The notes beneath the pieces were generated by a model. The model searched no databases and was not told the origin of the DNA. It was given only the letters and a program-made list of their open reading frames with translations. Both the position numbers and the translations under genes were made by a program. 50,618 nt of DNA from Actinomycetota bacterium. Its GTDB lineage: Bacteria > Actinomycetota > UBA4738 > HRBIN12. The stretch covers positions 1 to 50,618 of the forward strand of contig JBQTIP010000149.1 in NCBI GenBank assembly GCA_052388025.1, in the 5' to 3' direction. Of the stretch, positions 1 to 12,874 are shown piece after piece (the stretch's first letter is position 1; each line of letters opens with the position of its first letter).

Positions 1-120
1 CTGTTCCTCGCTTCAGACGAGGCCTCGTTCGTTACCGGCGCCGCGCTGATCGCCGACGGCGGGTCGATGGCGGTCGATGCCGGAGGCCTCGCATTCGACC
101 TGCCGGAGGAGCGCGGATGA
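1..120 (+). CDS. SDR-family oxidoreductase, C-terminal end (runs off window)
   Basis: Frame 1 reads LFLASDEASFVTGAALIADGG...*, the typical SDR C-terminal motif; TGA at 118-120. Confidence 0.85.
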   Translation: MFLASDEASFVTGAALIADGGSMAVDAGGLAFDLPEERG

Positions 121-251
121 GCTTCACGGGGACTTGGCTCCCGCCGCTGTGGCCCAAGAGTGAACCGCCGGAGCCGTTGAGCCGCAAGCCGGTGCCCGGT
201 TTGCCCTGGTGGGAGGGACAGGACGAAGTTCAAACCGCCTCGACCATCTGA
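117..251 (+). CDS. 44-aa small ORF or gene remnant coupled to the SDR gene
   Basis: ATGA overlap with the SDR stop and GGAGGAG just upstream; reads MSFTGTWLPPLWPK...; no recognisable domain. Confidence 0.3.
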   Translation: MSFTGTWLPPLWPKSEPPEPLSRKPVPGLPWWEGQDEVQTASTI

Positions 252-441
252 AACGCTTGCTCGCCAATTCGCCGGTTCGCCTGTGAAAGCTGGATACTGC
301 GGGCCCCTCACGAGCCGGCTCCAGGCCGTCTGACTCGCTCAGCTCACGGCGAGGCCACTCAGCTCACGATAAAGCCTGCTCGCATCCCGTCGCCGTGGTG
401 GGCCGGTAGGTTGCAGATGCTTCGGAGTAGCCTGTCGAGCC

Positions 442-540
442 GTGAACGAGCCCATTCGCTAGGCGATCAACGGAGATGTGCATATCGCCTATCAAGTCGT
501 CGGGGAAGGCCGCATCGACCTGGTCTATACCCCGGGGAAG
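442..540 (+). pseudogene. N-terminal remnant of an alpha/beta-hydrolase (LipJ-like hydrolase-cyclase/regulator type)
   Basis: Reads VNEPIR*AINGDVHIAYQVVGEGRIDLVYTPG, matching the 'RYA..GDVHIAYQV.G.GP.DLV..PG' N-terminus; in-frame TAG at 460-462; ends at an IS21 end sequence. Confidence 0.75.
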
Positions 541-567
541 GTGGTCCCTAGTTTCTGGCGGGCGACA
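536..567 (-). repeat. Orphan IS21-family left-end fragment (32 bp)
   Basis: ggaaggtggtccctagtttctggcgggcgaca is identical to 11035-11066, in the same orientation; begins TGT on the minus strand. Confidence 0.9.
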
Positions 568-569
568 CG

Positions 570-1040
570 GCAGCTGGTCTGGCGCTCCTGACAGTCATTC
601 TGTGGAGGCGGAGTGAGCGGATAATGTCTTCCACGGGTCTCGCTGCTTTCCTGGTTGGGGTGATCGCGTGGGGTTCCGCGACGTCTCAAAGAGCACCTCT
701 TGGCTCGACAGTTCTTGTTCAGATCGCCGCCGTCCTTGGTACCTGGGGTGACTCCCTCGGGGTGCTGAACGGGTTGCTCCCCTTGGCCTCGCTCGTGCTG
801 TTCAGCCTCGCTCTCGTCAGGGCTGGGCTGATGCGGCCCTGGCTTGGCCGGGCCGTAGTTGGCTGGGGAGTAGTCAACATAGGGATCGTCCTGATCCTGC
901 GTGGGACCGGACCGGTCGTGATCTACGTGATGACGCTGCTCATCGGCGTCGTGCTGATGGTCGGACGGATGGCACCCGACCAGGGGCGCTCGAGGCGCAC
1001 GCGCCTTCGGCCGTCCAGGCCGAGTTCGGTTGCAAACTGA
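570..1040 (+). pseudogene. 5'-truncated multi-pass membrane protein
   Basis: The hydrophobic frame of ORF 624-1040 stays open upstream (AAGLALLTVILWRRSERI-MSST...) to the IS21 end at 567, so the true start appears lost. Confidence 0.55.
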
Positions 1041-1220
1041 TCGGCCGGCGCTCTAAAGCCACGAGCTGGAGCTCGCCAGAGACGAGGGGCGATGTACGTA
1101 AGGGTCGAATCGGCCCCCCGAGTTAAACCGCGACAAGCCCGGGCAGAGTCGCAGGGCCCGACTCGTGAGAATCCGTAGCAACTCAGTCCCGAGGTCTGGC
1201 TGGATGTCCAGGCAGAAATG

Positions 1221-1246
1221 TGTCCCGCGTGTGTCCCGCGATGGAC
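1221..1246 (+). repeat. Putative integrase arm-type sites, junction 1
   Basis: tgtcccgcgtg-tgtcccgcg-atggac (11-bp period), 129 bp upstream of the tRNA fragment; homologous block at 7103-7128. Confidence 0.6.
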
Positions 1247-1348
1247 TGCAAAGGTTTGCGAAGCGTCGGGCAGTGCCGGGTAATCGAAACTGCTGGTCAG
1301 GGCCACGCTCAGCCGATTTCCCCTGATCCCCGAGCCGGGCCGGATCAA

Positions 1349-1393
1349 ACTCATAATCCGCCGGTCGGAGGTTCGAGTCCTCCCCGCCCCACC
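1349..1393 (+). tRNA. 3' half of tRNA(CAT), probably Ile2; att-core remnant 1 (not a full gene)
   Basis: CTCATAA loop, GGAGG-TTCGAGT-CCTCC T arm and CCGCCCC-A-CC acceptor strand; no 5' half. 1349-1398 is identical to 7230-7279 (50 bp). Lacks the initiator GGG/CCC anticodon stem. Confidence 0.85.
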
Positions 1394-1437
1394 GCGATCT
1401 GTCGTGTTCCGGGTGATGCTGGTCACTCCGGCGTCAC

Positions 1438-1522
1438 CTGATCCTTGACACCGGCTCCGGCTGATCCTTGACACCGGCTCCGGCTGATCGTTGACGGTGG
1501 CTTCGGCTGATGGTTGACGGTG
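1438..1522 (+). repeat. Four tandem 23-bp subterminal repeats of IS481 element 1
   Basis: ctgatccttgacaccggctccgg-like units start at 1438, 1461, 1484 and 1507 and resemble the IR core. Confidence 0.85.
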
Positions 1523-1576
1523 CCCACCTGCCCGGTCTCCTTGTCTCGGCCCCGGTCGAGCGGGAGGAGGTGGGCC

Positions 1577-2776
1577 GTGCTGGTGGAGCTTTCGGTCATG
1601 GAGCAGCGGTACCAGGCCGTCCTCGCGATGGTACAGGATGAATGGAAGGTCACCGAGGTCGCCCGTCGCCTCGGGGTCTCCCGCCAGAGCGTCCACAACT
1701 GGATCGCCCGCTACGAGGCCGGCGGACTGGCCGCGCTCGCCGATCGCTCCCACCGTCCGAGCAGCTGCCCGCACCAAACCGACCCCGAGACCGAGGCGTC
1801 CATCTGCGAGCTCCGCCGCGAGCACCCGGGTGAGGGCCCCGGCGGATCGAGCACCAGCTCGCGAGGTCAGGCGTGGATCCGGTCCCGTCCCGTTCGGGGA
1901 TCTACCGGTGCCTGCGCCGCCACCGCCTGATCGAGCTGCGACGGCGCCGAAAGCGCCGCGAGGAGTTCCGCCGCTTCGAGCGTGAGCGTCCCATGCAGCT
2001 TTGGCAGATGGACGTCATGGGCGGCGTCGCGCTCGAGGACGGGACCGAGGCCAAGGTGGTGACCGGGTTAGACGACCACAGCCGCTTCTGCGTGGCCGCC
2101 GGCCTGGTCGCCCGAGCCACCTCCAAGGCCGTCTGCGAGGTGTTCGCTGCCTCGCTTTCCCGCTACGGCATCCCCGACGAGATCTTGACCGACAACGGCA
2201 AGTGCTTCACCGGGCGCTTTGGACCCCAGCCCGTGGAGGTCATGTTCGACCGGATCTGCCGGGACAACGGGATCTCCCACCGGCACACCGTGTGCGCTCG
2301 CCGACCACCACCGGCAAGATCGAGCGGTTCCACCAGAGCCTGCGACGCGAGTTCCTGGCTGGCAGGACCTTCGCCTCGCTCGAGGCCGCCCAGGCCGAGC
2401 TGGGCGACTGGGTGGTCGACTACAACACCCAGAGGCCGCACCAGGCCCTGGACATGGCCACACCGGCCGAGCGGTTCGGCCTGACGCCGCTTGCCAAGAA
2501 CCCCGTCTCCGTTCCGGTCGACGCCGCCGAGGACCACCCCGGTCAGTGGGTGCTCCGCCGGGTCGCCTCCAACGGCCTGGTCTCCGTGGACAACCAGATG
2601 TTCTCCGTCGGCAACGCGTACAAGGCCGAGCTCGTCGACGTGTTCGTCGACGACACCACGATCCAGGTCTGGAGCAAGAACCACCTGATTCAAGACGGTG
2701 GCAAGGTCACGGACGGGGCGGGTCCGCAAGGTCCGAGCCGACGGCCTGCACGTCAAGCATCAGCCGGAACTTGACA
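1577..2776 (+). pseudogene. IS481-family transposase with three frameshifts
   Basis: GGAGGAGG then GTG (VLVELSVMEQRY). HTH, WQMD, LTDNG and TTGKIER motifs are split over frames, with breaks near 1830 (HPGWG), 2290 (HTGVRSP) and 2689 (HLIKT). Confidence 0.9.
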
Positions 2777-3073
2777 CGCCCCATTGCCAAGATGCAGCTC
2801 ACGAGGGGTACGGCTCGGCCCCCGTAGGGCCGCGCAAGCAGGAGTCGTCCCGTCGGCCGTCACGAAGAGAGCTCGATTGTTCGTAGTGGCGCTGACAAAT
2901 AGGGTCTACGGTCTGGGTCCCAGTTGTGAGGGGCAAGCCTGTCGTTGTGTCCAGTGGCCTCCACGCATGGTCGGCGCTGCATCGAGTTCGAGACATTACC
3001 CGCGGACCTTCCTGCGCAGGAGAGAGACGGACAGAATGGCCGGGTGAAGGGGGGTACCACGAAAGACAAGGTC

Positions 3074-6000
3074 ATGCGCGAGGAGCGCAAGGTCGTCACG
3101 GCGCTGTTCGCCGACATCGTCGGCTCCACTGCGCTTGGCGAGCGGTTCGATCCCGAGGACGTTGTTGAGATCGTCGGTCGGGCCCTGTCTCGGATGGTCG
3201 AGGTAGTCGAGGAGTTCGGGGGTACGGTCAAAGATTTGGCCGGCGACGGCCTTCTCGCGTTATTCGGAGCCCCCCAGGCGCACGAGGACGACCCCGAGCG
3301 GGCCGTCCGGGCGGGGATGCGGATGGTCGAGGCCATCCAGGCGCACGCCGCCGAGGTCCGGCACGAGTGGGACGTCCGGGAGTTTGGCGTCCGTGTGGGT
3401 ATCGAGACGGGCCTCGCCGTGCTTGGTGCCGTGGGAGGCGGGTCGCGTGTGGAATACGGAGCGACCGGCGATGCGCTCAACACCGCGGCCCGGCTGCAGG
3501 CGCACGCGGAGCCGCTTACGGTCCTCGTGGGTCCGACGACCCACCGTCTGATCGAGCCGATCTTCCAGTGGGGCGATCCGCGCCATCTCGAGATGAAGGG
3601 GAAGGCCGAGCCGGTCCCCGCCTTCGAGGTGACCGGATTCCGGGCCGAACCCGGGAAGCTCCGAAGTCCGGTGGGCGTGACGACGCCGCTTGTCGGCCGC
3701 GACGCCGAGCTCCGGGCCGCGCAGGACGCCGGAAAGGCCGTGCTGGCAGGGCGCGGCGGCATCCTGTTCGTGATCGGCGAGCCAGGGCTCGGGAAGACCC
3801 GCCTTCTCTCCGAGTTCCGGGACCTCGTGTGCGCCGAGTGCCCGGTCACCTGGCTCGAGGGGAGATGCGTCTCGTACGGGCAGGCCGTCCCGTACTGGCC
3901 CTTTCGGGATCTGCTCCGTGGATGGCTTGCCGCCGGAGTCGTCGATCCTCTGGATCGTCTCAGCGACGATCTGTCGGGGCGCATCCGTGCGCTCTTCGAC
4001 GGAAAGTCCGATGAGATCCTTCCCTACCTGGCGTCGATGCTCGGCCTTCCCCTCGACGCCGACGCGGAGCGGGAGCTCGACGCGTTGTCGCCGGAAGCTC
4101 GCCACTTCCGGACGACAGAGGCAGTACGCGCGCTGATCCGCCGCCTCGCTGAGGACGGCCCTGTGATCGTCGCGGTGGAGGACCTGCACTGGGCCGACGC
4201 CACGTCCATACAGCTCCTGGAGCGGCTGTTCCCGCTCGCGGAAGCCGAGCGGGCGCTGCTCGTCGCCTCCCTCCGACCGGAGCCCGACCATCCGTCCTGG
4301 CGTCTCCACCGTCAGGCCGCGCTTCAACATCCCAGGCGGGTCCACGTCCTCATGCTGGAGGGCCTGCCTGCTGGCGCCGATCGACAGCTGCTCGATGCAT
4401 TAATCGGTCATGGCACGCTGCCCGGTGATGTGGAGCGGCGCATCATCGATACCGCCGAGGGCAACCCGTTCTACCTGGAGGAGCTCGTTCGGTCGCTGAT
4501 CGACGACGATGCGTTGGTGGCCGAGGAGGGCGGGTGGCGCTTCGAGCACGGCACCGCCGTGGACATCCCGCCGACGGTGGAGCGGCTCATCATCTCCCGG
4601 ATCGACCGCCTGTCGCCGGCCGCCCGCGACACGATCCAGGCCGCATCGGTGCTAGGGAAGCAGTTCGGGCGGGAGCTTCTGGAGGCTGTGGCAGGCGGCG
4701 ACGGCGCCCTGTCCGAGGCTCTCAGCGAGCTCCGGTTCGTGGACCTCCTTCGTGAGGAGGCGGCGTCCGAGTACCGCTTCAAGCACGCTCTGATCCAGGA
4801 GGCCGCGTACAGCAACATGCTGAAGCGCCGGCGTCGGGAGCTGCACGCACGGGCTGCCGACGCGCTCGAATCGCTGTTCGGCGACCACCTCGAGCCGTAC
4901 TACGCAGTCCTCGCGCAGCACTATCGGAGCGCGGGCCGGCTACAGGAAGCCATTCGGTACTTCGAGCTCGCGGCAACAAGTGCCCGGCGCGTGTACGCAG
5001 TCGAGGCGGCGCTCGACCACTACACGGCCGCGCTCGAGATCGCGGAGTCGCTTGGCTTGGACCGAACCGCGCAGCTTCTACTCCTCCGAGGGCAAGTGCG
5101 GGGCCAGGCCGGGCAGTTGGCAGGCGGGAGGCAAGACTTTGAGCTGGCGCTCGGGGCGGCACGCGCGAACGCGGATCGGACGCTTGAAGTCGAAGCCATG
5201 AGCGAGCTGGGTTTCCTCCTAGCCGGTGCCGTGAACTACAGGGAGTCGCTGCCGCTCCTGGAACAGTCGCTGGCCGCCGCGAAGGCGATCGGGCTGCGCG
5301 AGGCTCAGGTGGCCGCTGCGTCGCGGCTCTCGATCGTCTACACGAATCTGCTTCGCCTGGATCTCGCAGTGGACCGGGCGCACCGAGCATGGGCCTTGGC
5401 CCGGGAGATCGGGGATGACCGGTCCGTGGCCATGGCCATGGATGCTCTGCAGGTCGCGTCGGTGATGGTAGGCGACATGGCGACCGTGGACGAGGTGTCC
5501 GCGCCGCTCATCGAGATCCACAGGCAGCGCGGCGACCTGTGGTACCTGCAGTTCGCACTGTTCCAGTGGGCCTGGGTGGACATGGCGGCGGGACGGTGGG
5601 ACGCGGCCGAGCGGCTCTTCTCCGAAGGACTGGCCGTGAACCAGCAGATCGGTGACCGAGCCAACGAGCCGGTCTTCCGTGCCACCCTCACATGGGTCGC
5701 TCGGGCTCGGGGCCAGTATGGGCGGGCAATCGAGCTCGGCCGGCGCGCAATCGAGCTTGCCTCGGAGGTCGGTCACGCTGAGTTCCTGTCGTGGGCGGCG
5801 GAGCTTCTTGGCTGGACACTGCTTGAGGTGTTCGCCGTCTCCGAGGCGGTGGACCAGCTCGAAAGCTCCCTCCAGGCGGCGGAGGAAGCCGGTGCCCGTA
5901 TCGAGGTGATCCGGGCGGCCTGCCACCTACCGCTCGCCCGCTGGTTGGCCGGCCGGGAACGCGCGCTGGAGGAGGCGGCCACGGCGGAGCGCCTCGTCGG

Positions 6001-6454
6001 CGAGATTACGGCACCACCGGGCCGGGTCTACCTGCAGGGGGCGGACGGACCGATCGCCCTAGCGACGTTCTACGGAGCCGCAGGGGATCCGTCGCGGGCC
6101 CTCGATCTCGCCGGGCCCGTTCTGAACGCCGCCATGGCGGCAGAGTGGCATGAGCTGGTGGCCGGGGCGGCGCTCGCCGTAGGCCGCGCCAAGGCCCGGC
6201 TGGACGACCCGGCCGGAGCGCGGGAGGCGCTCGAGACGGCCGCCGAACGGGCGGAGCGCTTCCAAATCCCCGGGCTGGCCTGGCGGGCCCATGCGCAGCT
6301 GGCCGCCATCGGGCCGCGCGCCGCGCGGCCGAGTCACGACGCCCGGGCGCGAGAACTCGTCGAAGCCTTGTCCCGATCGATCGAGGATGCGAGAATCCGG
6401 CGAACGTTCCTCGAAGGGGCGACGGAGCGGCTGTCGGGAGGTGGCGCGGAATGA
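3074..6454 (+). CDS. Class III nucleotide cyclase + STAND-like AAA NTPase + TPR-like repeat protein
   Basis: FADIVGST, AGD, GIETG and NTAAR cyclase motifs; Walker A GEPGLGKT; Walker B VAVEDLHWAD; GNPFY; FKHALIQEAAY; long Ala/Leu helical C-terminus. Start taken as ATG 3074 (ORF is open from 2945). Confidence 0.9.
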   Translation: MREERKVVTALFADIVGSTALGERFDPEDVVEIVGRALSRMVEVVEEFGGTVKDLAGDGLLALFGAPQAHEDDPERAVRAGMRMVEAIQAHAAEVRHEWDVREFGVRVGIETGLAVLGAVGGGSRVEYGATGDALNTAARLQAHAEPLTVLVGPTTHRLIEPIFQWGDPRHLEMKGKAEPVPAFEVTGFRAEPGKLRSPVGVTTPLVGRDAELRAAQDAGKAVLAGRGGILFVIGEPGLGKTRLLSEFRDLVCAECPVTWLEGRCVSYGQAVPYWPFRDLLRGWLAAGVVDPLDRLSDDLSGRIRALFDGKSDEILPYLASMLGLPLDADAERELDALSPEARHFRTTEAVRALIRRLAEDGPVIVAVEDLHWADATSIQLLERLFPLAEAERALLVASLRPEPDHPSWRLHRQAALQHPRRVHVLMLEGLPAGADRQLLDALIGHGTLPGDVERRIIDTAEGNPFYLEELVRSLIDDDALVAEEGGWRFEHGTAVDIPPTVERLIISRIDRLSPAARDTIQAASVLGKQFGRELLEAVAGGDGALSEALSELRFVDLLREEAASEYRFKHALIQEAAYSNMLKRRRRELHARAADALESLFGDHLEPYYAVLAQHYRSAGRLQEAIRYFELAATSARRVYAVEAALDHYTAALEIAESLGLDRTAQLLLLRGQVRGQAGQLAGGRQDFELALGAARANADRTLEVEAMSELGFLLAGAVNYRESLPLLEQSLAAAKAIGLREAQVAAASRLSIVYTNLLRLDLAVDRAHRAWALAREIGDDRSVAMAMDALQVASVMVGDMATVDEVSAPLIEIHRQRGDLWYLQFALFQWAWVDMAAGRWDAAERLFSEGLAVNQQIGDRANEPVFRATLTWVARARGQYGRAIELGRRAIELASEVGHAEFLSWAAELLGWTLLEVFAVSEAVDQLESSLQAAEEAGARIEVIRAACHLPLARWLAGRERALEEAATAERLVGEITAPPGRVYLQGADGPIALATFYGAAGDPSRALDLAGPVLNAAMAAEWHELVAGAALAVGRAKARLDDPAGAREALETAAERAERFQIPGLAWRAHAQLAAIGPRAARPSHDARARELVEALSRSIEDARIRRTFLEGATERLSGGGAE

Positions 6455-6876
6455 AGGTGGCGGGCGTCCACCATGTCACGTTTCGGAGCCAGGATCCGTT
6501 GGCCGCGCGGCGATTCTATGAGGAGGTGGTCGGCCTGGAGTTCATGGAGATCCCGGTCTCCGGAGAAGTCACGTCGATCTGGAAGGGGGCCCCCGCCGCG
6601 GGCGTGTTCCTTGCGACGCAGGTTGGGACCACCTTCCTCGTGATCGCGCCGCCGCTCGAGGGAACGGCCGAGGACGATCGGTTCAGTGAGTACCGTGTCG
6701 GCTTAGACCACCTCGCGTTCGCGGTCGAGGATCGCGAAGAGCTCGATTCGCTCGTGGAGCGGCTGCGGGGCGCAGGCGTCGAAACCCAGGGGGTGGAGAC
6801 CGACGTCGTGCTGGGCAAGGAATACGTCGCGTTCCGGGACCCCGATAACGTCCAGTTGGAGGCCTACATGGTGTAG
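6451..6876 (+). CDS. VOC/glyoxalase-family protein
   Basis: VHHV...GLDHLAFAV...FRDPDNVQLE motifs; ATGA overlap with the upstream gene. Confidence 0.9.
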   Translation: MKVAGVHHVTFRSQDPLAARRFYEEVVGLEFMEIPVSGEVTSIWKGAPAAGVFLATQVGTTFLVIAPPLEGTAEDDRFSEYRVGLDHLAFAVEDREELDSLVERLRGAGVETQGVETDVVLGKEYVAFRDPDNVQLEAYMV

Positions 6877-7102
6877 GCGGGATCTCCCATTTCACCACAC
6901 GCTGCCGAACAGCCCGCGTCGATTCCTGAACGACGCTCCGCAGGAGGAGCGGCCGCGTCGCCGACGATCGACAGTCCACCCCGAAGAGCCTTCGGCCCCA
7001 CGAGGATAGTGAGCTAGTAGACTCCTCAGACTGGACAACCGACGGGTCGCGAGCTGTTCTCCGAACCTGCCGCGACCGTTGTTACGAACTACGACAATGG
7101 CC

Positions 7103-7128
7103 TGTCCCGCATCTGCCCCGCGATGGAC
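7103..7128 (+). repeat. Putative integrase arm-type sites, junction 2
   Basis: tgtcccgcatc-tgccccgcg-atggac, 128 bp upstream of the second tRNA fragment; gaagcgtcggg is also shared with junction 1. Confidence 0.6.
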
Positions 7129-7226
7129 CGGGAAATGACGGGAACAGACGAGAAGCGTCGGGAAGGGAATCCGCTGCTCAGTGGCGATCTCGGGCCCGAT
7201 GCCGCAGGTCCAGAGAGTGGCTGGAT

Positions 7227-7274
7227 CGGACTCATAATCCGCCGGTCGGAGGTTCGAGTCCTCCCCGCCCCACC
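7227..7274 (+). tRNA. 3' half of tRNA(CAT), probably Ile2; att-core remnant 2
   Basis: CGGA-CTCATAA-TCCG anticodon arm, T arm and acceptor 3' strand; no D arm or 5' acceptor strand upstream. Confidence 0.85.
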
Positions 7275-7293
7275 GCGATGTCAACGACGGTCG

Positions 7294-8955
7294 TGTGAAG
7301 CTCCGGCACCTCTGTCCCACATCGGCTCCGGCACCTGTGTCCCACTTCGCGACCCGGCTCCGGCTCCTGGGCGACAGTGGCTCCGGCACCTGTGTCCCAC
7401 CGATCCCACTTCCGGTCCGATCCTGATCTTCACTTGCGCCCAACAGGGACAAGGGGGATCTCGGCATGCTGCAGGAGCTGTCGGTGGTTGAGCAGCGCTA
7501 CCTTGCGGTCAGAGAGGTGCTGGACGGTGCCAAGGTCACCGACGTCGCCACCCGCTACGGGGTCGATCGGCGGACCGTCCACCGGTGGCTCGTCCGCTAC
7601 GCCACCGAGGGCCTGGGAGCCCTCGCCGACCGAAGCTCCCGGTCCGACCGCTGCCGCCACCAGACCCCGCCGGAGATCGAGGCCAGGATCGTGGCCCTTC
7701 GCCGGGCCCATCCGGGCTGGGGCCCCCGAACGATCCTTTCCAAGCTCCGCCGGGAGCTCGAGCAGCCTCCTTCTCGCTCCTCGATCTACCGGTGCCTTCT
7801 CCGCCACCGCCTGATCGACCCCAAGCCCCGCCGGCGCCGGGCCAAGGACTACCGCCGCTGGGAGCGCTCCCGACCGATGGAGCTGTGGCAGATGGACGTG
7901 ATGGGCGAGGTGATGCTCGCAGGTGGCACCCAGCTCAAGGCGATCACCGGGATCGACGACCACTCCCGGTTCTGCGTGATCGCCAAGGTCGTCCACCGGG
8001 CCACGGCAAGACCGGTGTGCGAGGCGCTCCTTGAGGCGCTGTCCCGCCACGGCGTGCCCGAGCAGATCCTGACCGACAATGCCAAGGTCTTCACCGCACG
8101 GCTCGCCCACACCCCCACCATCGTGGCCTTCGACCGGATCTGCCTCGCCAACGGCATCCGCCACATCCTCACCGCCCCCTACTCGCCCACGACCACCGGC
8201 AAGATCGAGCGGCTGCACAAGACGATCCGAAAGGAGCTGCTCTCAGAGAGCACCTTCACCACGATCGAGCAGGCCCAGGCCGAGCTGGATGCCTGGGTCG
8301 CCCGCCACAACCGTGAGCGGGAACACCAGGCGATCGGGGACGTGCCCCCTGCCAGACGCTTTGAGCTCGTGCAGCGATCACCCGCTGAAGTTGTCGATCC
8401 CGATGAGGCACCCGAGGAGTCGCAATCGAACAGCCCCAAGGTCGGGCGCAAGGTCGACCGCGCCGGGCGCATCAGCATCCTGAAGCACCGCTACCACGTC
8501 GGCCGGCACCTGGCCGGCCGCAGGGTGACCGTGGAGTCCGCAGGTGGGCTGCTGCACGTCAGCCACGAAGGAGTCATCGTCGCCACGCATGCCCGACGGC
8601 ACCTGGCAGAAGATGACGAGCGGATGGACCGACGAGCCAAGGCGTCGCGCCCCTCACCTCCAACGGCCGGAGAGGAGGTTCTTCGCAAGGTCGATCCGTC
8701 GGGCTCGGTCAGCTTCGCCGGGGCTGGCTACCGCGTCGGCAACCGCTTCATCGGACAGGTCGTCGGCGTCCGCGTGGTCGCTGACACCATCCAGATCACC
8801 CAGGACGGAGTGCTGCTCCGAACCCACCGAGCTCGCCACGACAAGAGCAAGGAGTTCGGAGCCCTCGCCAACCCTGGCGGCAGACCCAGGAGGAGCGCTC
8901 AGGATGTCGCATAGGTACCGGAGCCATTCCGGGACACGGGTACTGAGACTTCACA
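7294..8955 (+). mobile_element. IS481-family element 2 (apparently intact)
   Basis: Ends TGTGAAGCTCCGGCACC... and ...GGTACTGAGACTTCACA; four ctccggcacctgtgtccca-like units at 7300-7400 and two inverted ones at the right end; no target duplication seen. Confidence 0.9.
7466..8914 (+). CDS. IS481-family DDE transposase, 482 aa
   Basis: ELSVVEQRY N-terminus, HTH, HPGWG, WQMD, LTDN and TTGKIER; duplicated C-terminal beta domain. Confidence 0.93.
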   Translation: MLQELSVVEQRYLAVREVLDGAKVTDVATRYGVDRRTVHRWLVRYATEGLGALADRSSRSDRCRHQTPPEIEARIVALRRAHPGWGPRTILSKLRRELEQPPSRSSIYRCLLRHRLIDPKPRRRRAKDYRRWERSRPMELWQMDVMGEVMLAGGTQLKAITGIDDHSRFCVIAKVVHRATARPVCEALLEALSRHGVPEQILTDNAKVFTARLAHTPTIVAFDRICLANGIRHILTAPYSPTTTGKIERLHKTIRKELLSESTFTTIEQAQAELDAWVARHNREREHQAIGDVPPARRFELVQRSPAEVVDPDEAPEESQSNSPKVGRKVDRAGRISILKHRYHVGRHLAGRRVTVESAGGLLHVSHEGVIVATHARRHLAEDDERMDRRAKASRPSPPTAGEEVLRKVDPSGSVSFAGAGYRVGNRFIGQVVGVRVVADTIQITQDGVLLRTHRARHDKSKEFGALANPGGRPRRSAQDVA

Positions 8956-8973
8956 TCTACCTGCGGTTTTGCG

Positions 8974-9004
8974 CCTCGGAGCGGGCCTTCGGGCGGCTCC
9001 GGGG
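8974..9004. terminator. GC-rich hairpin with C-UUCG-G loop, possible terminator
   Basis: cggagc..gcc-TTCG-ggc..gctccg between convergent ORFs; no U tract. Confidence 0.35.
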
Positions 9005-9052
9005 CCGCCGTGGGGCCGCGTGGGGGCTGCGAGTGACGACGTAAGTGGACGG

Positions 9053-9719
9053 TCAAGCCCCGTGGGAGGTTGCCAGATGGTCTAGCAGCGGGGCGGCGGC
9101 CTGGCCCGGGGCGACGACCGTCCATGACTTGCCCGCTCGGGTGATCACCACGTAGAAGAGCCGCCGGTGGTCGTCGTCGTCCGGCCAGAAGCGGTCCATC
9201 GCATCCCCGAGGACGATGGCATCGAATTCCTTCCCCTTGGCTTGGTGGGCCGTCATCACGAACAGCCCGCGGTCCATCCGCGGCGCTGTGTAGGCGGCGG
9301 CCAGTACGGCGGCGGAGTAGCGCTCAAGCGCAAGGTCTAGGTCCGCGAGTTCGTTCTCCAGTGCCGCGGCAGTGGCCCGAAGCGCCCGTACAGCCTCTAT
9401 CCGCGGAAGGTGGTGCCCCCCTTCGGCAAGTACCTCAAGAGCTGCCACTACGGACTCGAAGTATGCGCTCGGACCCGTCACGTAGATGGGTTCAAGAGTC
9501 CGCAGGATGACAGCGGCCCCCGCACTGGCCCGGTGCACGTTGATGCCCTCGGGACGGAGCCGGCCCCGGACCTGTGCCAGCAGTGTGGGAGTCAGGGTGG
9601 GGACGAGGGCCTCGAGGCGGTCCACAGCGTGGAGGGCGACGGTCTGCGAGTCCATGAGGAGCGGAAGTTGCTCGATATCCTGCCGGGCCTCCTCGAAGTC
9701 CTCGGTACCGATCTGGCGG
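9053..9719 (-). pseudogene. C-terminal fragment of a UvrD/SF1A helicase, fused in frame to IstA
   Basis: Motif V (MTAHQAKGKEFD) and motif VI (RRLFYVVITRA) are present; no Walker A/B. Confidence 0.8.
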
Positions 9720-10942
9720 GCGGCCTTCTCCGGTGGCAGATCGGCCTCGTCCGTGGAGCGCCCGCCGGGGCGGGTGCGGGGATGGGTCTTGATCAACACG
9801 CCGTGGTGGTAGACCCGGACCAGGTGCCGGTCGGCCCGGACCTTAACGTGGAGGCCGATGTAGGCGGCGGGCACCGAGTACAGGGCCTTGTCCACCTCGA
9901 TGTGGTAGTCCCGGTGGACCTTGGGCTCGGCGTAGTGCGGCAGGTCGTAGGGAGCCTCCGGCGCTGGCGCGAGCGTCGGGGCCTCCTCGGCGCGGAACAC
10001 CTCCAGGGGTCGGCGCTGGGTGGTGCCGTGGATCCTGAGGCCCGCCGTGGAAAGGCACCACCGCTCCGCCCGGCGCCTGGCGTCCTCGAGCGAGGCGAAG
10101 TCCTCCCCGGCGAAGAAGGAAGACCGGACGTAGCCCACGGCCCGCTCCACCCGAGCCTTGTCCTTGGGGTGGCGGACCCGGGCCGCGTCGATGAGGAAGC
10201 CCCGGGCCTGGGCGTACTCGACGAACGCCTCGTTCAGGCGGGGGGCCAGGGGGTCAGGGCGCTCGACCACCGCCTTGAGGTTGTCGGGGATGATGACCTT
10301 GAACACCCCGCCGAAGAACGCCCACGCTGCCTCGAACCCCTCGATCACCGCGGGCAGGGCCTGGCTGAACGTGAGCCAGACGAAGGTGTGTCGGCTGTAG
10401 GCCGCCGTGAACACTAGGGCGTAGCAGACCCGCCGGCGTCCAGCCTCCGGATCGTGAAGCAGCCCCATCTGGCCGAAGTCGACTTGCAGCTCCGAGCCCG
10501 GATCGGGATCGTCGATGCGCACGGTCGTTCGCTTGGCCGCCGTACCGCACTCCGCCGCGCAGAACCGGTACAGGGTCCGGGAGGCGACCTCCACCCCCTT
10601 GTGGCGGGCCAGGTCCGATTGGATGCGGACCACGGTGAGGCCCTTGTCCAGTCGCTCGGTCATGAACGCCTTGTGCGTGAGCAGGACCTGCCACGCCGCT
10701 CCCCGGTCCCCCGGCGGGCGTCCGGGCGGGGTGGCCGCGACGACGGCTGCCAGCAGCTCCTCGGTGAGCTGCTCATCACCTCGTTCTCGGACCAGGCCGG
10801 CCGCGATCGCCGCCTCGACGTAGCGGCGCGCGCTCTTGCGATCGATGAGCGCCAGCCGCGCGATGGACCGGTAGCCGTGGCCCGCAAGCCACAACCGCAG
10901 GATCTCTCGAACCACCACCACAGACACCTCCCGAAACGCCAC
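9053..10942 (-). CDS. istA: Chimeric ORF: truncated IS21 transposase IstA (~aa 1-407) + helicase tail
   Basis: MAFREVSV N-terminus, HTH, QVDFG / PDNLK / KARVER DDE triad and YSVP beta domain; sequence switches after DLPPEKA at ~9720. Confidence 0.85.
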   Translation of the reverse strand: MAFREVSVVVVREILRLWLAGHGYRSIARLALIDRKSARRYVEAAIAAGLVRERGDEQLTEELLAAVVAATPPGRPPGDRGAAWQVLLTHKAFMTERLDKGLTVVRIQSDLARHKGVEVASRTLYRFCAAECGTAAKRTTVRIDDPDPGSELQVDFGQMGLLHDPEAGRRRVCYALVFTAAYSRHTFVWLTFSQALPAVIEGFEAAWAFFGGVFKVIIPDNLKAVVERPDPLAPRLNEAFVEYAQARGFLIDAARVRHPKDKARVERAVGYVRSSFFAGEDFASLEDARRRAERWCLSTAGLRIHGTTQRRPLEVFRAEEAPTLAPAPEAPYDLPHYAEPKVHRDYHIEVDKALYSVPAAYIGLHVKVRADRHLVRVYHHGVLIKTHPRTRPGGRSTDEADLPPEKAARQIGTEDFEEARQDIEQLPLLMDSQTVALHAVDRLEALVPTLTPTLLAQVRGRLRPEGINVHRASAGAAVILRTLEPIYVTGPSAYFESVVAALEVLAEGGHHLPRIEAVRALRATAAALENELADLDLALERYSAAVLAAAYTAPRMDRGLFVMTAHQAKGKEFDAIVLGDAMDRFWPDDDDHRRLFYVVITRAGKSWTVVAPGQAAAPLLDHLATSHGA

Positions 10943-11066
10943 GCCGCACCTCCAGCTCGAGCCGTCGGTGCGCGACTACCACGGGCTACCGGCCGTTCCG
11001 TGGAGATTCGAGGGTGGTCCCTAGTTTCTGGCGAGGAAGGTGGTCCCTAGTTTCTGGCGGGCGACA
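9720..11066 (-). mobile_element. Truncated IS21-family element (left end + istA; istB and right end absent)
   Basis: Left end TGTCGCCCGCCAGAAACTAGGGACCACC, with the 21-bp unit repeated at 11013-11033 and 11039-11059. Confidence 0.88.
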
Positions 11067-11262
11067 TCTCTACCAGCGGCTTTGAGCTCTGCTCGATCTT
11101 GGTGCTGTCGCTTGCCCACCTACTCCTGGGCCGTAGACGAAGATGCTGATCCCCCGGGCCGCGAACACCCCCGCGCGAGGCCGGCCACTTCACGAGGGGT
11201 GGTGTGCACGTGCACAACGGAGATGGTCAGACACGCTCCTCGCACCTTGGGCTAACCCTCGG

Positions 11263-12078
11263 CTACTCAAGGCTGACCGGATCACCGCGACGGATCGTGC
11301 CGCCCCGCAGCACGCCGGCATACATCCCGACGTTTACCTGGTTGTGCTGGGCCGCGGTCCGCAGGATCCCCGAGTCCTTGGGTAGATCCCCCTGGGGCAG
11401 GGTCGTCATGACGCACCGAGGGCAAGGTCCGGTGATGCTCACGCGAACCTCGTCTCCGATGGCGAGGGCGTGTCCCTCCCAAGCATTCTCAACGAAGTCC
11501 TTCTCCGCGGGACCTGTTTGGACCACGATGTTTGGACGAAACCGCCGGACCTCGAAGCGCCCCTCGGGATAGAGCTCCCGGAGTCGGTCGATGGTGGCGG
11601 TCGTCAGCACGTGAATCACGGCAAGGTCGAAGAATGTGCCCGGGGGCATGGCCTCATCGGTGACTGTCTTTCTTCGGGCAAGGCCCTCGATGTCCGGCCA
11701 GTACTCCTCCAGGCTGGGCTCCTTGGGGGCGGTTGACTGAAGGGTTGCCTCCCGGTCGAACACGTGGGAAAGGACCTGGTCGATATCGCTCTGCTGGCTG
11801 GTGACAATGATTCCATCAGGGAAAGTGATCCGGACCGGGGGGATGCTCTCCTCTACGCGCAGAGGCTCGATATAGGCCGCCCGGAAGTCGAACAGCTTCC
11901 CCCACTTCCGAGGATTCTTGGCGCTCGCCACCTTCCCATTGGTCGGGTCCACGAGGGCGTAACCGCGATCCCCGAGCAACCCGCGGTCCGTGACGGGGGA
12001 AGCGTTCACCTCCTCACCCATCATCGACTTGACGGGATAGCGCAATAGAGAGGCTACTGAACCAACAACGGTTGCCAT
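11263..12078 (-). CDS. MOSC domain-containing protein
   Basis: RYPVKSM, GDR, RRFRPNIVV, CPRCVMTT and G.Y..V..GG.I..GD motifs. Confidence 0.93.
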   Translation of the reverse strand: MATVVGSVASLLRYPVKSMMGEEVNASPVTDRGLLGDRGYALVDPTNGKVASAKNPRKWGKLFDFRAAYIEPLRVEESIPPVRITFPDGIIVTSQQSDIDQVLSHVFDREATLQSTAPKEPSLEEYWPDIEGLARRKTVTDEAMPPGTFFDLAVIHVLTTATIDRLRELYPEGRFEVRRFRPNIVVQTGPAEKDFVENAWEGHALAIGDEVRVSITGPCPRCVMTTLPQGDLPKDSGILRTAAQHNQVNVGMYAGVLRGGTIRRGDPVSLE

Positions 12079-12252
12079 CGCTCTCCCTCTTCACTACTTG
12101 CAAGATCAGAAACAACCACGGTGGCCAAGGCCTGTCAAGACGTGGCCACGTCCCTCCCGCGCCGGCCCGCTGCGTTCGAATCCGTTCCCCACTCGGGCTT
12201 GACCAGTGCGCCCGCACCGCCCTTGACCAGACCCAATCGAAGGCGCGAATTC

Positions 12253-12279
12253 GTGGGAGGGGGAGTGTGGGAGGGGGAG
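12253..12279 (-). repeat. Tandem 13-bp duplication of the tRNA-Tyr 3' end
   Basis: gtgggagggggag at 12253-12265 and 12267-12279. Confidence 0.8.
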
Positions 12280-12349
12280 GATTCGAACCTCCGTAGGCTA
12301 CGCCGGCGATTTTACAGACCGCTCCCTTTGGCCGCTCGGGCACCCTCCC
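12268..12349 (-). tRNA. tRNA-Tyr(GTA)
   Basis: GGGAGGG acceptor, GCGGT-CTGTAAA-ATCGC anticodon arm, long variable arm and GGAGG-TTCGAAT-CCTCC T arm; CCA not fully encoded. Confidence 0.96.
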
Positions 12350-12360
12350 GGGAAACGCTC

Positions 12361-12370
12361 GTAAGATTAC
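12361..12370. promoter_or_regulatory. Overlapping divergent -10 elements for yajQ and tRNA-Tyr
   Basis: TAAGAT (+, 12362-12367) and TAATCT (-, 12369-12364) in a 27-bp intergenic gap. Confidence 0.6.
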
Positions 12371-12376
12371 CGAACC

Positions 12377-12874
12377 ATGGCGAAGGACACCTTCTCGTTC
12401 GACATCGTCTCGCAGGTGAACATGCAGGAGGTGTCGAACGCCCTCGACCAGGCGCGGCGCGAGATCGCTCAGCGGTTCGACTTCAAGAACACCGGGACCT
12501 CCCTAGACCGCGACGACAAGCTCATCGAGCTGCGCTCGTCGACCGAGGACCGGATGAGGGCCGCCCTGGACGTGCTTAAGGAGAAGCTCGTCCGCCGGGA
12601 GGTGCCCATCAAGGCGCTCTCCGAGGGCCCGGTCCTCGCCGCCGCCAAGGGCACGGTTCGCCAGAGCCTCCACATCGTTCAGGGCATCTCCGAGGAGAAG
12701 GCGAGGGAGCTGACCAAGTTCGTCAAGGGGACGGGTCTCAAGGTCCAGAGCCAGGTCCAGGGCGACCAGGTTCGCATCGTTGGGAAGAAGAAGGACGACC
12801 TCCAGTCCATCATCAAGGCGGTGAAAGAGCACGACTTCGGCATCGCCCTGCAGTTCGTGAACTTCCGGCCCTAG
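12377..12874 (+). CDS. yajQ: YajQ-family nucleotide/c-di-GMP-binding protein
   Basis: SFDIVS, QRFDFK, QGDQVR, KKDDLQ and LQFVNFR motifs; divergent from tRNA-Tyr. Confidence 0.96.
   Translation: MAKDTFSFDIVSQVNMQEVSNALDQARREIAQRFDFKNTGTSLDRDDKLIELRSSTEDRMRAALDVLKEKLVRREVPIKALSEGPVLAAAKGTVRQSLHIVQGISEEKARELTKFVKGTGLKVQSQVQGDQVRIVGKKKDDLQSIIKAVKEHDFGIALQFVNFRP

Follow-up and report, generated by a model that had tools for sequence, protein, structure and literature searches.

The DNA analysed here (the window) is the whole of contig C149, 50,618 bp, of the 337-contig, 3.06-Mb and 96% complete genome (G000) of an uncultured actinobacterium, the protein relatives of which are labelled Actinomycetota or Acidimicrobiia. 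Between positions 1219 and 9031 it carries two identical 3' halves of tRNA-Met(CAT), each preceded by a conserved arm and followed by an insertion sequence (IS) of the IS481 family, designated IS-Y behind the left copy and IS-X behind the right one. The explanation that we favour, with a probability of roughly 70%, has two layers: the region would be the distal part of a tandem array of elements at tRNA-Met(CAT), to which an independent clade of tRNA-seeking IS has been added. The cassette side of this explanation is a variant of known things, namely tandem islands, cis-mobilisable elements (CIMEs) and phage attachment (attP) sites of the actinophage type; the unexpected part is a clade of IS481 elements that insert behind tRNA genes in one orientation and at a measured distance.

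IS-X (7294..8955, + strand) is an intact IS481-family element of 1662 bp, the left tip of which lies 19 nt after the CCACC that closes the tRNA half. Its termini read TGTGAAG...CTTCACA, three subterminal GCTCCGGCACCTSTGTCCCAC repeats stand at the left end, and the left end (TGTGAAGCTCCGGCACCTCTGTCCCAC) and the right end (as reverse complement, TGTGAAGTCTCAGTACCCGTGTCCCGG) match at 18 of 27 positions, as counted by eye. A single gene (7466-8914) encodes a transposase of 482 aa, which scored 278.1 bits against the NCBIfam model NF033577 (IS481; cut-off 224) over residues 11-299 and matched the Pfam families rve, rve_3, HTH_32 and LZ_Tnp_IS481, as well as Mu-transposase C-terminal domains. No specific IS name emerged from the 120 closest proteins listed, which bore only generic labels ('IS481 family transposase', 'transposase InsO family protein'). 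The excerpted text of PMC11406308 gives TGT...ACA as the termini of IS481, and IS-X resembles that family in these termini, in its one gene, in its length of ~1.66 kb and in the combination of HTH, rve and LZ_Tnp_IS481 domains. It differs from the family in the Mu-transposase C-terminal domains (482 aa) and in the several left subterminal repeats, and its clade differs further in a target duplication of 14-16 bp and in oriented insertion at a fixed distance behind tRNA genes.

IS-Y (1412..~2740, + strand) is a decayed element of the same family. Its left tip (GGTGATGC) follows CCACC at a distance of 18 nt, and subterminal repeats of 23 bp occupy 1428-1530. Its transposase is broken into pieces in three frames (1577-1840, 1825-2280 and 2298-2738), contains an in-frame stop and breaks off near residue 397 of 482; the element has lost its right end. 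The protein is 59% identical to that of IS-X over the first 233 residues and 34% identical beyond them; the in-frame stop, the truncation and the divergence together make decay the safe reading. Part of the regular spacing to the right of both cores thus reflects two related IS, each of which stands equally far from its copy of a common target.

The position of these two elements recurs. Four IS copies in this genome have a left junction that can be read, and all of them begin 18-19 nt after a ...CCCCACC end, across spacers that are unrelated to one another: C149:1412, C149:7294, C215:846 (behind an intact tRNA-Met) and C242:1666 (behind a pseudo-tRNA). A wider survey covered 80 loci encoding relatives of the transposase at 51-83% identity, taken from one-genome-per-species contigs, and 59 of them were assessable, with at least 330 nt present upstream of the transposase start. 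A co-oriented tRNA called by ARAGORN ended less than 330 nt upstream of the transposase start at 31 of the 59, and the targets comprised 16 anticodons from Lys, Arg, Ala, Leu, Gly, Val, Met, Asn and Cys species; eight more had the T-arm motif only, for which the control rate was 94 in 863 windows. With about 50 tRNA genes to be expected in a genome this large, chance cannot produce the association, and the use of many tRNA species by close IS relatives indicates a generic tRNA feature and not one particular gene.

The feature itself could be narrowed down by aligning 28 sites (25 from relatives and three from this genome) on the IS tip. GGTTC.A.TCC at -43..-33 was the only conserved target feature, and the spacer between target and tip had no consensus. 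At least five of the targets are tRNA 3' halves and not genes (L015, L028, L040, L042 and core 2 of the window), so that the landmark must lie in the 3' part. Flanking repeats were listed by a scan at 27 loci and measured 14-16 nt in 21, 12-13 nt in three and 11 nt in three, the last of which look spurious; the IS units that they bound are mostly 1.65-1.75 kb long and mostly have TGT...ACA termini. The distance from the tRNA end to the IS tip takes one of two values, either 18-22 nt (L013, L029, L033, L035, L043, L045 and L077) or 94-98 nt (L018, L041, L048, L061 and L068, the second register being ascribed also to L012 and L027). In the second register the T-loop motif stands ~118 nt from the tip, and the registers differ by ~78 bp; both are found among close relatives, even behind the same tRNA-Lys (L023 versus L018). 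From these alignments we consider it probable that elements of this IS481 clade seek tRNA 3' ends, and that their one-protein transposase uses any tRNA T arm as its landmark for insertion at a measured distance downstream.

The other layer concerns the tRNA halves themselves. Core 1 (1349..1398) and core 2 (7230..7279), both on the + strand, start at the anticodon loop (ACTCATAA) and run through the variable region, the T arm and the acceptor 3' strand to CCACC (at 1393 in core 1) and a final GCGAT. Their identity, which the original prediction had put at 50 bp, is exact over that length, and the neighbouring bases differ on both sides, so that a tRNA 3' segment stands as a direct repeat at the borders of the element, the arrangement by which attachment (att) sites are recognised. 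An intact tRNA-Met of the core type, differing from the cores at two positions, lies at C215:751-827 on a 2.8-kb contig; further halves beginning at the same base ACTCATAA occur at C314:2645 and C304:1644, and the same anticodon-loop start is found in relatives. Neither core was called a tRNA by ARAGORN, and the only Rfam tRNA match, at 7201-7272, was sub-threshold (28.6 bits against a gathering score of 29); an RNA gene made up of arm and tRNA half was considered and rejected, Rfam giving nothing else in 1-12500 at E <= 0.1. On a different contig, C242:1685-1760 (minus strand) holds a pseudo-tRNA, not called by ARAGORN, in which a D arm and anticodon arm resembling tRNA-Arg(TCT) are joined to a T arm and acceptor 3' strand of the tRNA-Met core type, without a matching 5' acceptor strand; a copy of IS-X lies 19 nt behind it.

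Each core is preceded by an arm, here called P for the left side of a core (P' for the right side). P arm 1 (1219..1348, + strand) comprises an arm-type direct pair (TGTGTCCCGCG twice, 1219-1241) and ~105 bp of conserved arm leading to the core, and P arm 2 (7101..7229, + strand) comprises the pair CTGTCCCGCA TCTGCCCCGCG (7102-7122) and its arm. The block TGTCCCGC-N3-TGYCCCGCGATGGAC contained in them, at 1221-1246 and 7103-7128, had been predicted before each core; it is present at both, but at 128 and 127 bp on recount and not at 129 and 128. Global alignment of the two P arms gave 68% identity, with a background of 59%, and BLAST aligned 7103-7279 with 1190-1400 at 74% identity (E 3e-23). 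An order-wide search of 294 genomes from 78 genera with a degenerate form of the block, for which the reversed pattern served as control, found the TGTGTCCCGY block in 28 genomes and 19 genera, and the control in none; together with the BLAST E-value, these counts show that the arm block is not due to chance. Seven of the 28 genomes are flagged as unpublished (G049, G059, G062, G082, G127, G210 and G257), and no claim depends on those alone. In a metagenome set of 80 loci holding 81 TGTGTCCCGY blocks, 68 blocks had a T arm 140-175 nt downstream, five stood at contig ends and eight were unclear. The cores armed in this way are 3' halves of tRNA-Met or tRNA-Asn.

Alignment of 17 P arms revealed an invariant repeat pair, a CTGCTGGTCA motif kept ~55 nt before the core and G(G/A)ATCA immediately ahead of it; in the Met type, GGAT and the ATCC inside the core may form a small inverted repeat around the anticodon loop, as would be expected of core-type sites. 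Conservation relative to the window sets in abruptly at the repeat pair (~1218) and ends within the core (~1392), at 70-88% identity across many contigs, and the DNA left of the pair is unrelated cargo. A word GC(A/T)GGTCAG(R)GGCC stands ~10 nt behind many tRNA genes of the lineage (among them L018, L041, L043, L059, L061, L065 and C304:1695), and a similar one is found inside P arms (~1295-1310 in the window), ~55 nt ahead of att cores. At L065 the word forms one side of a hairpin resembling a terminator. Its role could be that of half a terminator, of a signal for processing or of a binding site for a protein.

The arms follow a general design. Paired, in one case triplet, direct repeats of 8-10 nt with an 11-bp period stand at +55..+62 after tRNA-Met or its halves and at -127..-132 before the halves, and the repeat word is identical across both sides of one unit and differs among units. 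At least five words were distinguished: TGTGTCCCGY (window, C304, G020, G006, G142 and G016), GTGCTACC (C314, C304 and C217), TGCCAACG (C314), CAGGCCGC (G058) and GGGGCCGC (window, 9001-9031), and a Dehalococcoidia locus (L040, L042) has the same design with yet another word. The last window block, which had been singled out beforehand as a different kind of repeat, is real: it is a triple 8-mer with an 11-bp period (GGGGCCGC, GGGGCCGC, GGGGCTGC; 9001..9031, + strand), unique in the genome, and we read it as a putative P'-type arm of a neighbouring unit of other specificity. On C314, a frameshifted tyrosine integrase (2689-4100) lies between two TGCCAACG pairs (2749 and 4052), adjoins a tRNA-Met half and reads toward the core, its frame being open across the core on the opposite strand. 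Several genomes and words thus have arm-type repeats at set distances to the left and right of the core, the window unit keeping the P-side pair only, and the recurrence of one geometry with at least five words in this and other genomes upholds the view that cores and arm repeats are tyrosine-integrase att sites. Another identity of the repeats was rejected: they are not the ends of a DDE transposon, as the pairs to the left and right of a unit point the same way and are not inverted, and although TGTGTCCC resembles the IS-X subterminal TGTGTCCCAC, other units use the unrelated GTGCTACC, TGCCAACG, CAGGCCGC and GGGGCCGC.

The closest known architecture is that of actinobacteriophage attP sites. 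According to the portions of PMC3203893 available to us, paired 11-bp arm-type sites flank the common core, which lies in a tRNA or tmRNA gene, in direct orientation in L5 and Giles, and the arm words differ among integrases with a common attB. The sites described here share with those of L5, Giles and Cluster K, as presented in these portions, the direct pairs with an 11-bp period flanking a core of 43-50 bp that overlaps the 3' part of a tRNA, and also the change of repeat word between elements with the same core. They differ from the attP sites in that source in having no phage genes and no linked integrase here, and binding of the repeats by an integrase would be expected by analogy. When a phage or plasmid carrier was sought with the block pattern in a viral contig collection, there were 0 exact matches.

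The unit bounded by the two cores (1399-7279) contains the IS-Y remnant, a cyclase-AAA_16-TPR gene, a glyoxalase-fold gene and P arm 2, without a P' pair. The first cargo gene (3074..6454, + strand; 1126-1169 aa) encodes an adenylate/guanylate cyclase domain, an AAA_16 domain (STAND-type ATPase) and TPR repeats; its open reading frame (ORF) is listed as 2945-6454, with a likely ATG start at 3074. The second (6451..6876, + strand) encodes a glyoxalase/dioxygenase-fold protein of 141 aa. No integrase lies in the window, as had been noted from the sequence: taking a Pfam Phage_integrase match as a tyrosine integrase, C149 has 0, and the seven of the genome are on C209, C159, C7, C314 (two) and C239 (two). 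A caveat to this absence is that C149 carries three genes with a DDE 'integrase core' (rve) domain (7466-8914, 1577-2738 and 9053-10942). Both cores are intact, but an IS splits each site, IS-Y the left one, which also lacks the P' pair, and IS-X the right one. The proposal of a non-autonomous cassette that kept its att arm therefore survives in part: there is no integrase and the P arm has been kept, but the left P' arm has been lost, and the window unit is a decayed, CIME-like remnant. In an unrelated metagenome (run X2), a 5.2-kb contig matches 2969-6881, with both cargo genes, at ~93% and has other sequence beyond both ends, so that the cargo module also exists outside this frame. No excision or circle joint linking 1399 with 7279 was present in the assembled contigs of runs X1-X4; those of X1, the probable source sample, end at both cores (900-1378, 1369-3835, 3846-7258 and 7317-7903) and are uninformative on excision.

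The alternative that survives best, and that stays nearest to the original prediction, holds that the units are non-autonomous, integrase-less cassettes still captured, stacked and excised at tRNA-Met and tRNA-Asn by an integrase acting in trans, in an integron- or satellite-like way, the IS being later intruders. We consider it unlikely, though several findings speak for it. The P arm is kept from pair to core with the sharp boundary and the unrelated cargo to its left described above, and one arm type recurs in 28 genomes of 19 genera and in 80 metagenome loci and serves both tRNA-Met and tRNA-Asn cores. In 16 of 18 block-bearing genomes checked (G000, G020, G006, G153, G069, G077, G076, G162, G098, G119, G145, G173, G122, G126, G042 and G065), no Phage_integrase match was found on any block-bearing contig; there were two exceptions, namely G142, in which an integrase lies outside the unit at a distance of 10 kb, and G016, in which a unit of 2.7 kb contains a C-terminal remnant of 75 residues next to the P' pair. 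An intact integrase with the TGTGTCCCGY arm was found in none of these 18 genomes and in none of 12 complete metagenome cassettes. The latter (eight of them distinct, 2.6-8.3 kb) lie between an intact tRNA and an armed half and carry acyl-CoA synthetases, hydrolases, an Abi_C protein, a STAND ATPase and others; their 30 ORFs matched 36 Pfam families, of which the 25 listed do not include Phage_integrase.

Cargo can be named for further complete units. G020 has two units, of 5.0 and 7.8 kb, and the first of them (L109, on G020:C61, 1039-6091, at tRNA-Met) is a compact and complete operon of a cyclic-oligonucleotide-based antiphage signalling system (CBASS) between P' and P arms, with genes for a fused HTH-peptidase M78 regulator, a SMODS cyclase, a SEC-C-motif protein and a TIR-SAVED effector; the ORF sizes of a unit at the metagenome locus L206 match those of this CBASS unit. 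Like the broad distribution of a single arm type, this compactness speaks for units that still move with help. The unit in G142 (9.5 kb) contains a sulfatase, a lysyl-PG-synthase-like gene, an aquaporin and a DUF2252 gene. Simple decay of ordinary islands would have predicted homologous arms that always adjoin their own integrase, with unvarying cargo; instead, the arms mostly have no integrase and the cargo is fully different.

Against mobilisation in trans, no trans-acting integrase was identified for the TGTGTCCCGY arm and no circle was seen in the assembled contigs. Remnants of integrase C-termini speak for decay of autonomous elements: besides that in G016, tblastn found 38 residues in G042, next to a TGTCCCGY-type P' block, and 75 residues in G024, next to a tRNA-Met core, the arm type having been determined for G016 and G042. 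In tblastn, five integrase queries against the 80 metagenome loci gave mostly short, spurious matches to the reverse-translated tRNA core and two real fragments (L188 and L226). The integrase remnants next to P' arms show that some units, at the least, go back to autonomous elements that underwent deletion. The window unit, without a P' arm and with its left att site split by IS-Y, should moreover be immobile, and the family counts rest on 25 of 36 listed families and the integrase searches on assembled contigs. Active mobilisation of the units, whether in trans or in cis, is accordingly doubtful in our estimate, and we think it slightly less probable still that both halves hold together, i.e. 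that a one-protein transposase reading T arms coexists with living, trans-mobilised TGTGTCCCGY cassettes, the IS competing for sites and freezing them.

The relation to known integrase-less units can be stated more closely. CIMEs and the tandem accretion of integrative elements at tRNA genes are described in the excerpts of PMC5704250. As far as those excerpts go, the present units resemble CIMEs in being bounded by att repeats from the tRNA 3' end, in having no integration or transfer genes and in standing in tandem, and a decay origin is likewise suggested, here by the integrase remnants in relatives. They depart from the CIMEs of the same excerpts in coming from uncultured Actinomycetota, in being small (2.6-9.5 kb) and in some cases holding compact cargo such as CBASS, and in having one arm type across 19 genera with two tRNA targets and no intact integrase; the window unit is, in addition, one arm short. 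Integrons are similar in that recombinase-less, promoter-poor cargo cassettes are stacked at one site. Unlike integrons, however, the units have no intI, attI, Pc or attC, their borders are tRNA halves with arm-type sites, and no shared recombinase was found.

A single old segmental duplication of [P arm - tRNA half - IS], with the core homogenised by gene conversion and no site-specific events, would explain why P arm, core and IS stand in the same order and orientation in both copies, with flanks 65-74% identical. It also agrees with the loci L205 and L232, in which P arm, core and an IS-Y-like element are contiguous at 76% identity over 1218-2595 and which indicate that this junction is old and was inherited as a block. 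Armed cores without IS occur elsewhere, however (G020, G142 and many metagenome loci), the IS is found behind 16 other kinds of tRNA without arms, the core-IS spacers differ past the shared GCGAT, and in relatives the target duplications flank the IS alone, all of which makes such a duplication very improbable. The notion that the tRNA half belongs to the IS, carried along or serving as guide or primer, can draw on the tRNA-like 3' end beside the IS at every readable left junction in this genome, but it was rejected as next to impossible, given that in relatives 14-16-bp target duplications enclose the IS alone, as a unit of 1.65-1.75 kb starting with TGT 18-22 nt after the tRNA, and that the neighbouring tRNAs are the host's own, with 16 anticodons, complete genes at 31 loci and unrelated spacers.

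Several observations weigh against the two-layer explanation, beginning with the survey, in which 20 of the 59 assessable loci had neither a tRNA nor the T-arm motif within 330 nt. At four of these 20, all from Thermoleophilia, a tRNA-Arg lies on the opposite strand. In these loci (L052, L067, L082 and L084) the IS left end is ~90 nt from the 5' end of that tRNA-Arg, and the geometry may go back to one inherited insertion. L027, also among the 20, has the T-arm motif 118 nt before the IS tip, just past the 330-nt window.

In the window itself, IS-X has no target duplication, the left flank being GTCAACGACGGTCG and the right one TCTACCTGCGGTTT. The right flank, including the GGGGCCGC block, was therefore probably joined later by recombination between IS copies, and the local order may not be fully original. 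The 14-mer to the left of IS-X recurs once, at C317:2858, not beside an IS, and the right 14-mer is unique, so that the original neighbours are not reconstructable. The array, moreover, is not joinable to the intact tRNA-Met on C215 in an assembly of 337 contigs. Pure decay poorly suits some units, in view of the missing intact integrase for TGTGTCCCGY and the compact CBASS unit. T-arm recognition, too, is read off the alignment of sites: the transposase, or one HTH domain of it, may recognise T-arm DNA, with the complex setting the cuts about four helical turns away. As to the 15 nt between core 2 and IS-X (TGTCAACGACGGTCG, 7280-7293), they recur at C317:2857-2871, and C259 has at ~1100-1180 a string similar to TGTCAACGACGGTCG, followed by repeated CCGGTCGAA..TTGAC words; the region may be what is left of one end of a further small mobile element, one that had settled behind the tRNA half before IS-X arrived.

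In the two-layer explanation, each element would have entered by tyrosine-integrase recombination in the segment from the anticodon loop to the 3' end, and each junction would keep a tRNA 3' half, with the P arm of the element to its left (pair at ~128 bp) and the P' arm of the next element to its right (pair at ~58 bp). The IS clade would recognise the 3' part of the tRNA, the T arm GGTTCRANTCC at 42-43 nt from the insertion point being common to all targets, and its members would insert downstream of the tRNA end, always in the same orientation, at 18-22 nt or, for a second class, at 94-98 nt, duplicating 14-16 bp. Both cores could have been hit, by the old and decayed IS-Y and by the intact IS-X, because halves left as att scars still bear the T-arm landmark. 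Many IS left tips read TGTGA.AGTTCGG, resembling the T-loop word GTTCGA, and one may speculate that the target mimics the IS end.

Insertion between the core and the P' pair (+58) would shift the arm sites 1.66 kb off the core and so split the att site. For tyrosine integrases of the lambda type, it is established that separation of the arms abolishes excision. By analogy, IS insertion would block excision and favour decay. One deletion running rightward from inside IS-Y would then have removed its right end, the target duplication, the P' arm and the integrase. At five of the 80 IS loci (L012, L021, L031, L049 and L060), an opposite-strand tyrosine-integrase segment lies 0.1-0.5 kb past the right end of the IS; with the IS standing between tRNA and integrase in those five, tRNA-seeking IS could help to fossilise islands at tRNA genes.

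In Tn7, the target duplication is 5 bp, unlike the 14-16 bp of the IS clade. The excerpts of PMC11406308 and PMC11837452 present tRNA genes as attachment sites of Tn7-like and CRISPR-associated transposons, which find them by means of TnsD/TniQ or guide RNAs. Judged by these excerpts, the IS-X clade and those transposons have in common a safe-harbour strategy, in which position and orientation of the insertion just downstream of a tRNA gene are fixed and the gene is left intact, and the clade shares with Tn7-like elements the several transposase-binding repeats at the ends and the TGT termini. In contrast to them, IS-X has no TnsA, TnsC, TniQ or CRISPR component: its 1662 bp encode one protein of 482 aa, and a single transposase of a different family must handle both recognition and catalysis. 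tRNA targeting by IS481-family or other single-gene bacterial IS was not found in searches of full-text literature from which most subscription journals and ISfinder were absent.

The DNA to the right of IS-X that was probably joined later consists of the GGGGCCGC triplet, an IS21-like/helicase gene and a MOSC gene, and it ends at a tRNA-Tyr. The first of these genes (9053..10942, - strand, 629 aa) is an IstA-like ORF of the IS21 family, with HTH, rve and Mu-transposase C domains, fused to a C-terminal piece of a UvrD-like helicase that makes up its last ~70 residues; no IstB gene follows it. The IS was probably inserted into, or recombined with, a helicase gene, and the ORF is debris to the right of the array, outside the cassette. 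A 35-bp sequence with a GGTGGTCCCTAGTTTCTGGCGGGCGACA core occurs twice in tandem at 11006-11066, upstream of this gene, and once more at 533-567, 97% identical and in the same orientation, so that the sites bracket the whole tRNA-half region; these repeats look like an IS21-type end and a solo copy.

Target-site selection is the least understood step of simple insertion sequences. If the explanation given here is true, a single 482-aa transposase would be the smallest known bacterial safe-harbour targeting system, directing harmless insertion behind many kinds of tRNA; it would amount to a Tn7-style safe-harbour strategy without TnsC, TniQ or guide RNA and would offer a tractable model for a DDE transposase that measures distance, in two registers of ~19 and ~97 bp. 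Retrotransposons directed to tRNA genes exist in yeast and Dictyostelium, and the clade would be their bacterial counterpart. An IS landing between core and arm should disable the excision of an island, which provides a concrete route to fixed cargo at tRNA genes. Armed integrase-less units with CBASS and other cargo recur across 19 genera, and if the cassette reading were true, they would constitute a tRNA-anchored integron analogue that shuffles cargo, including defence systems.

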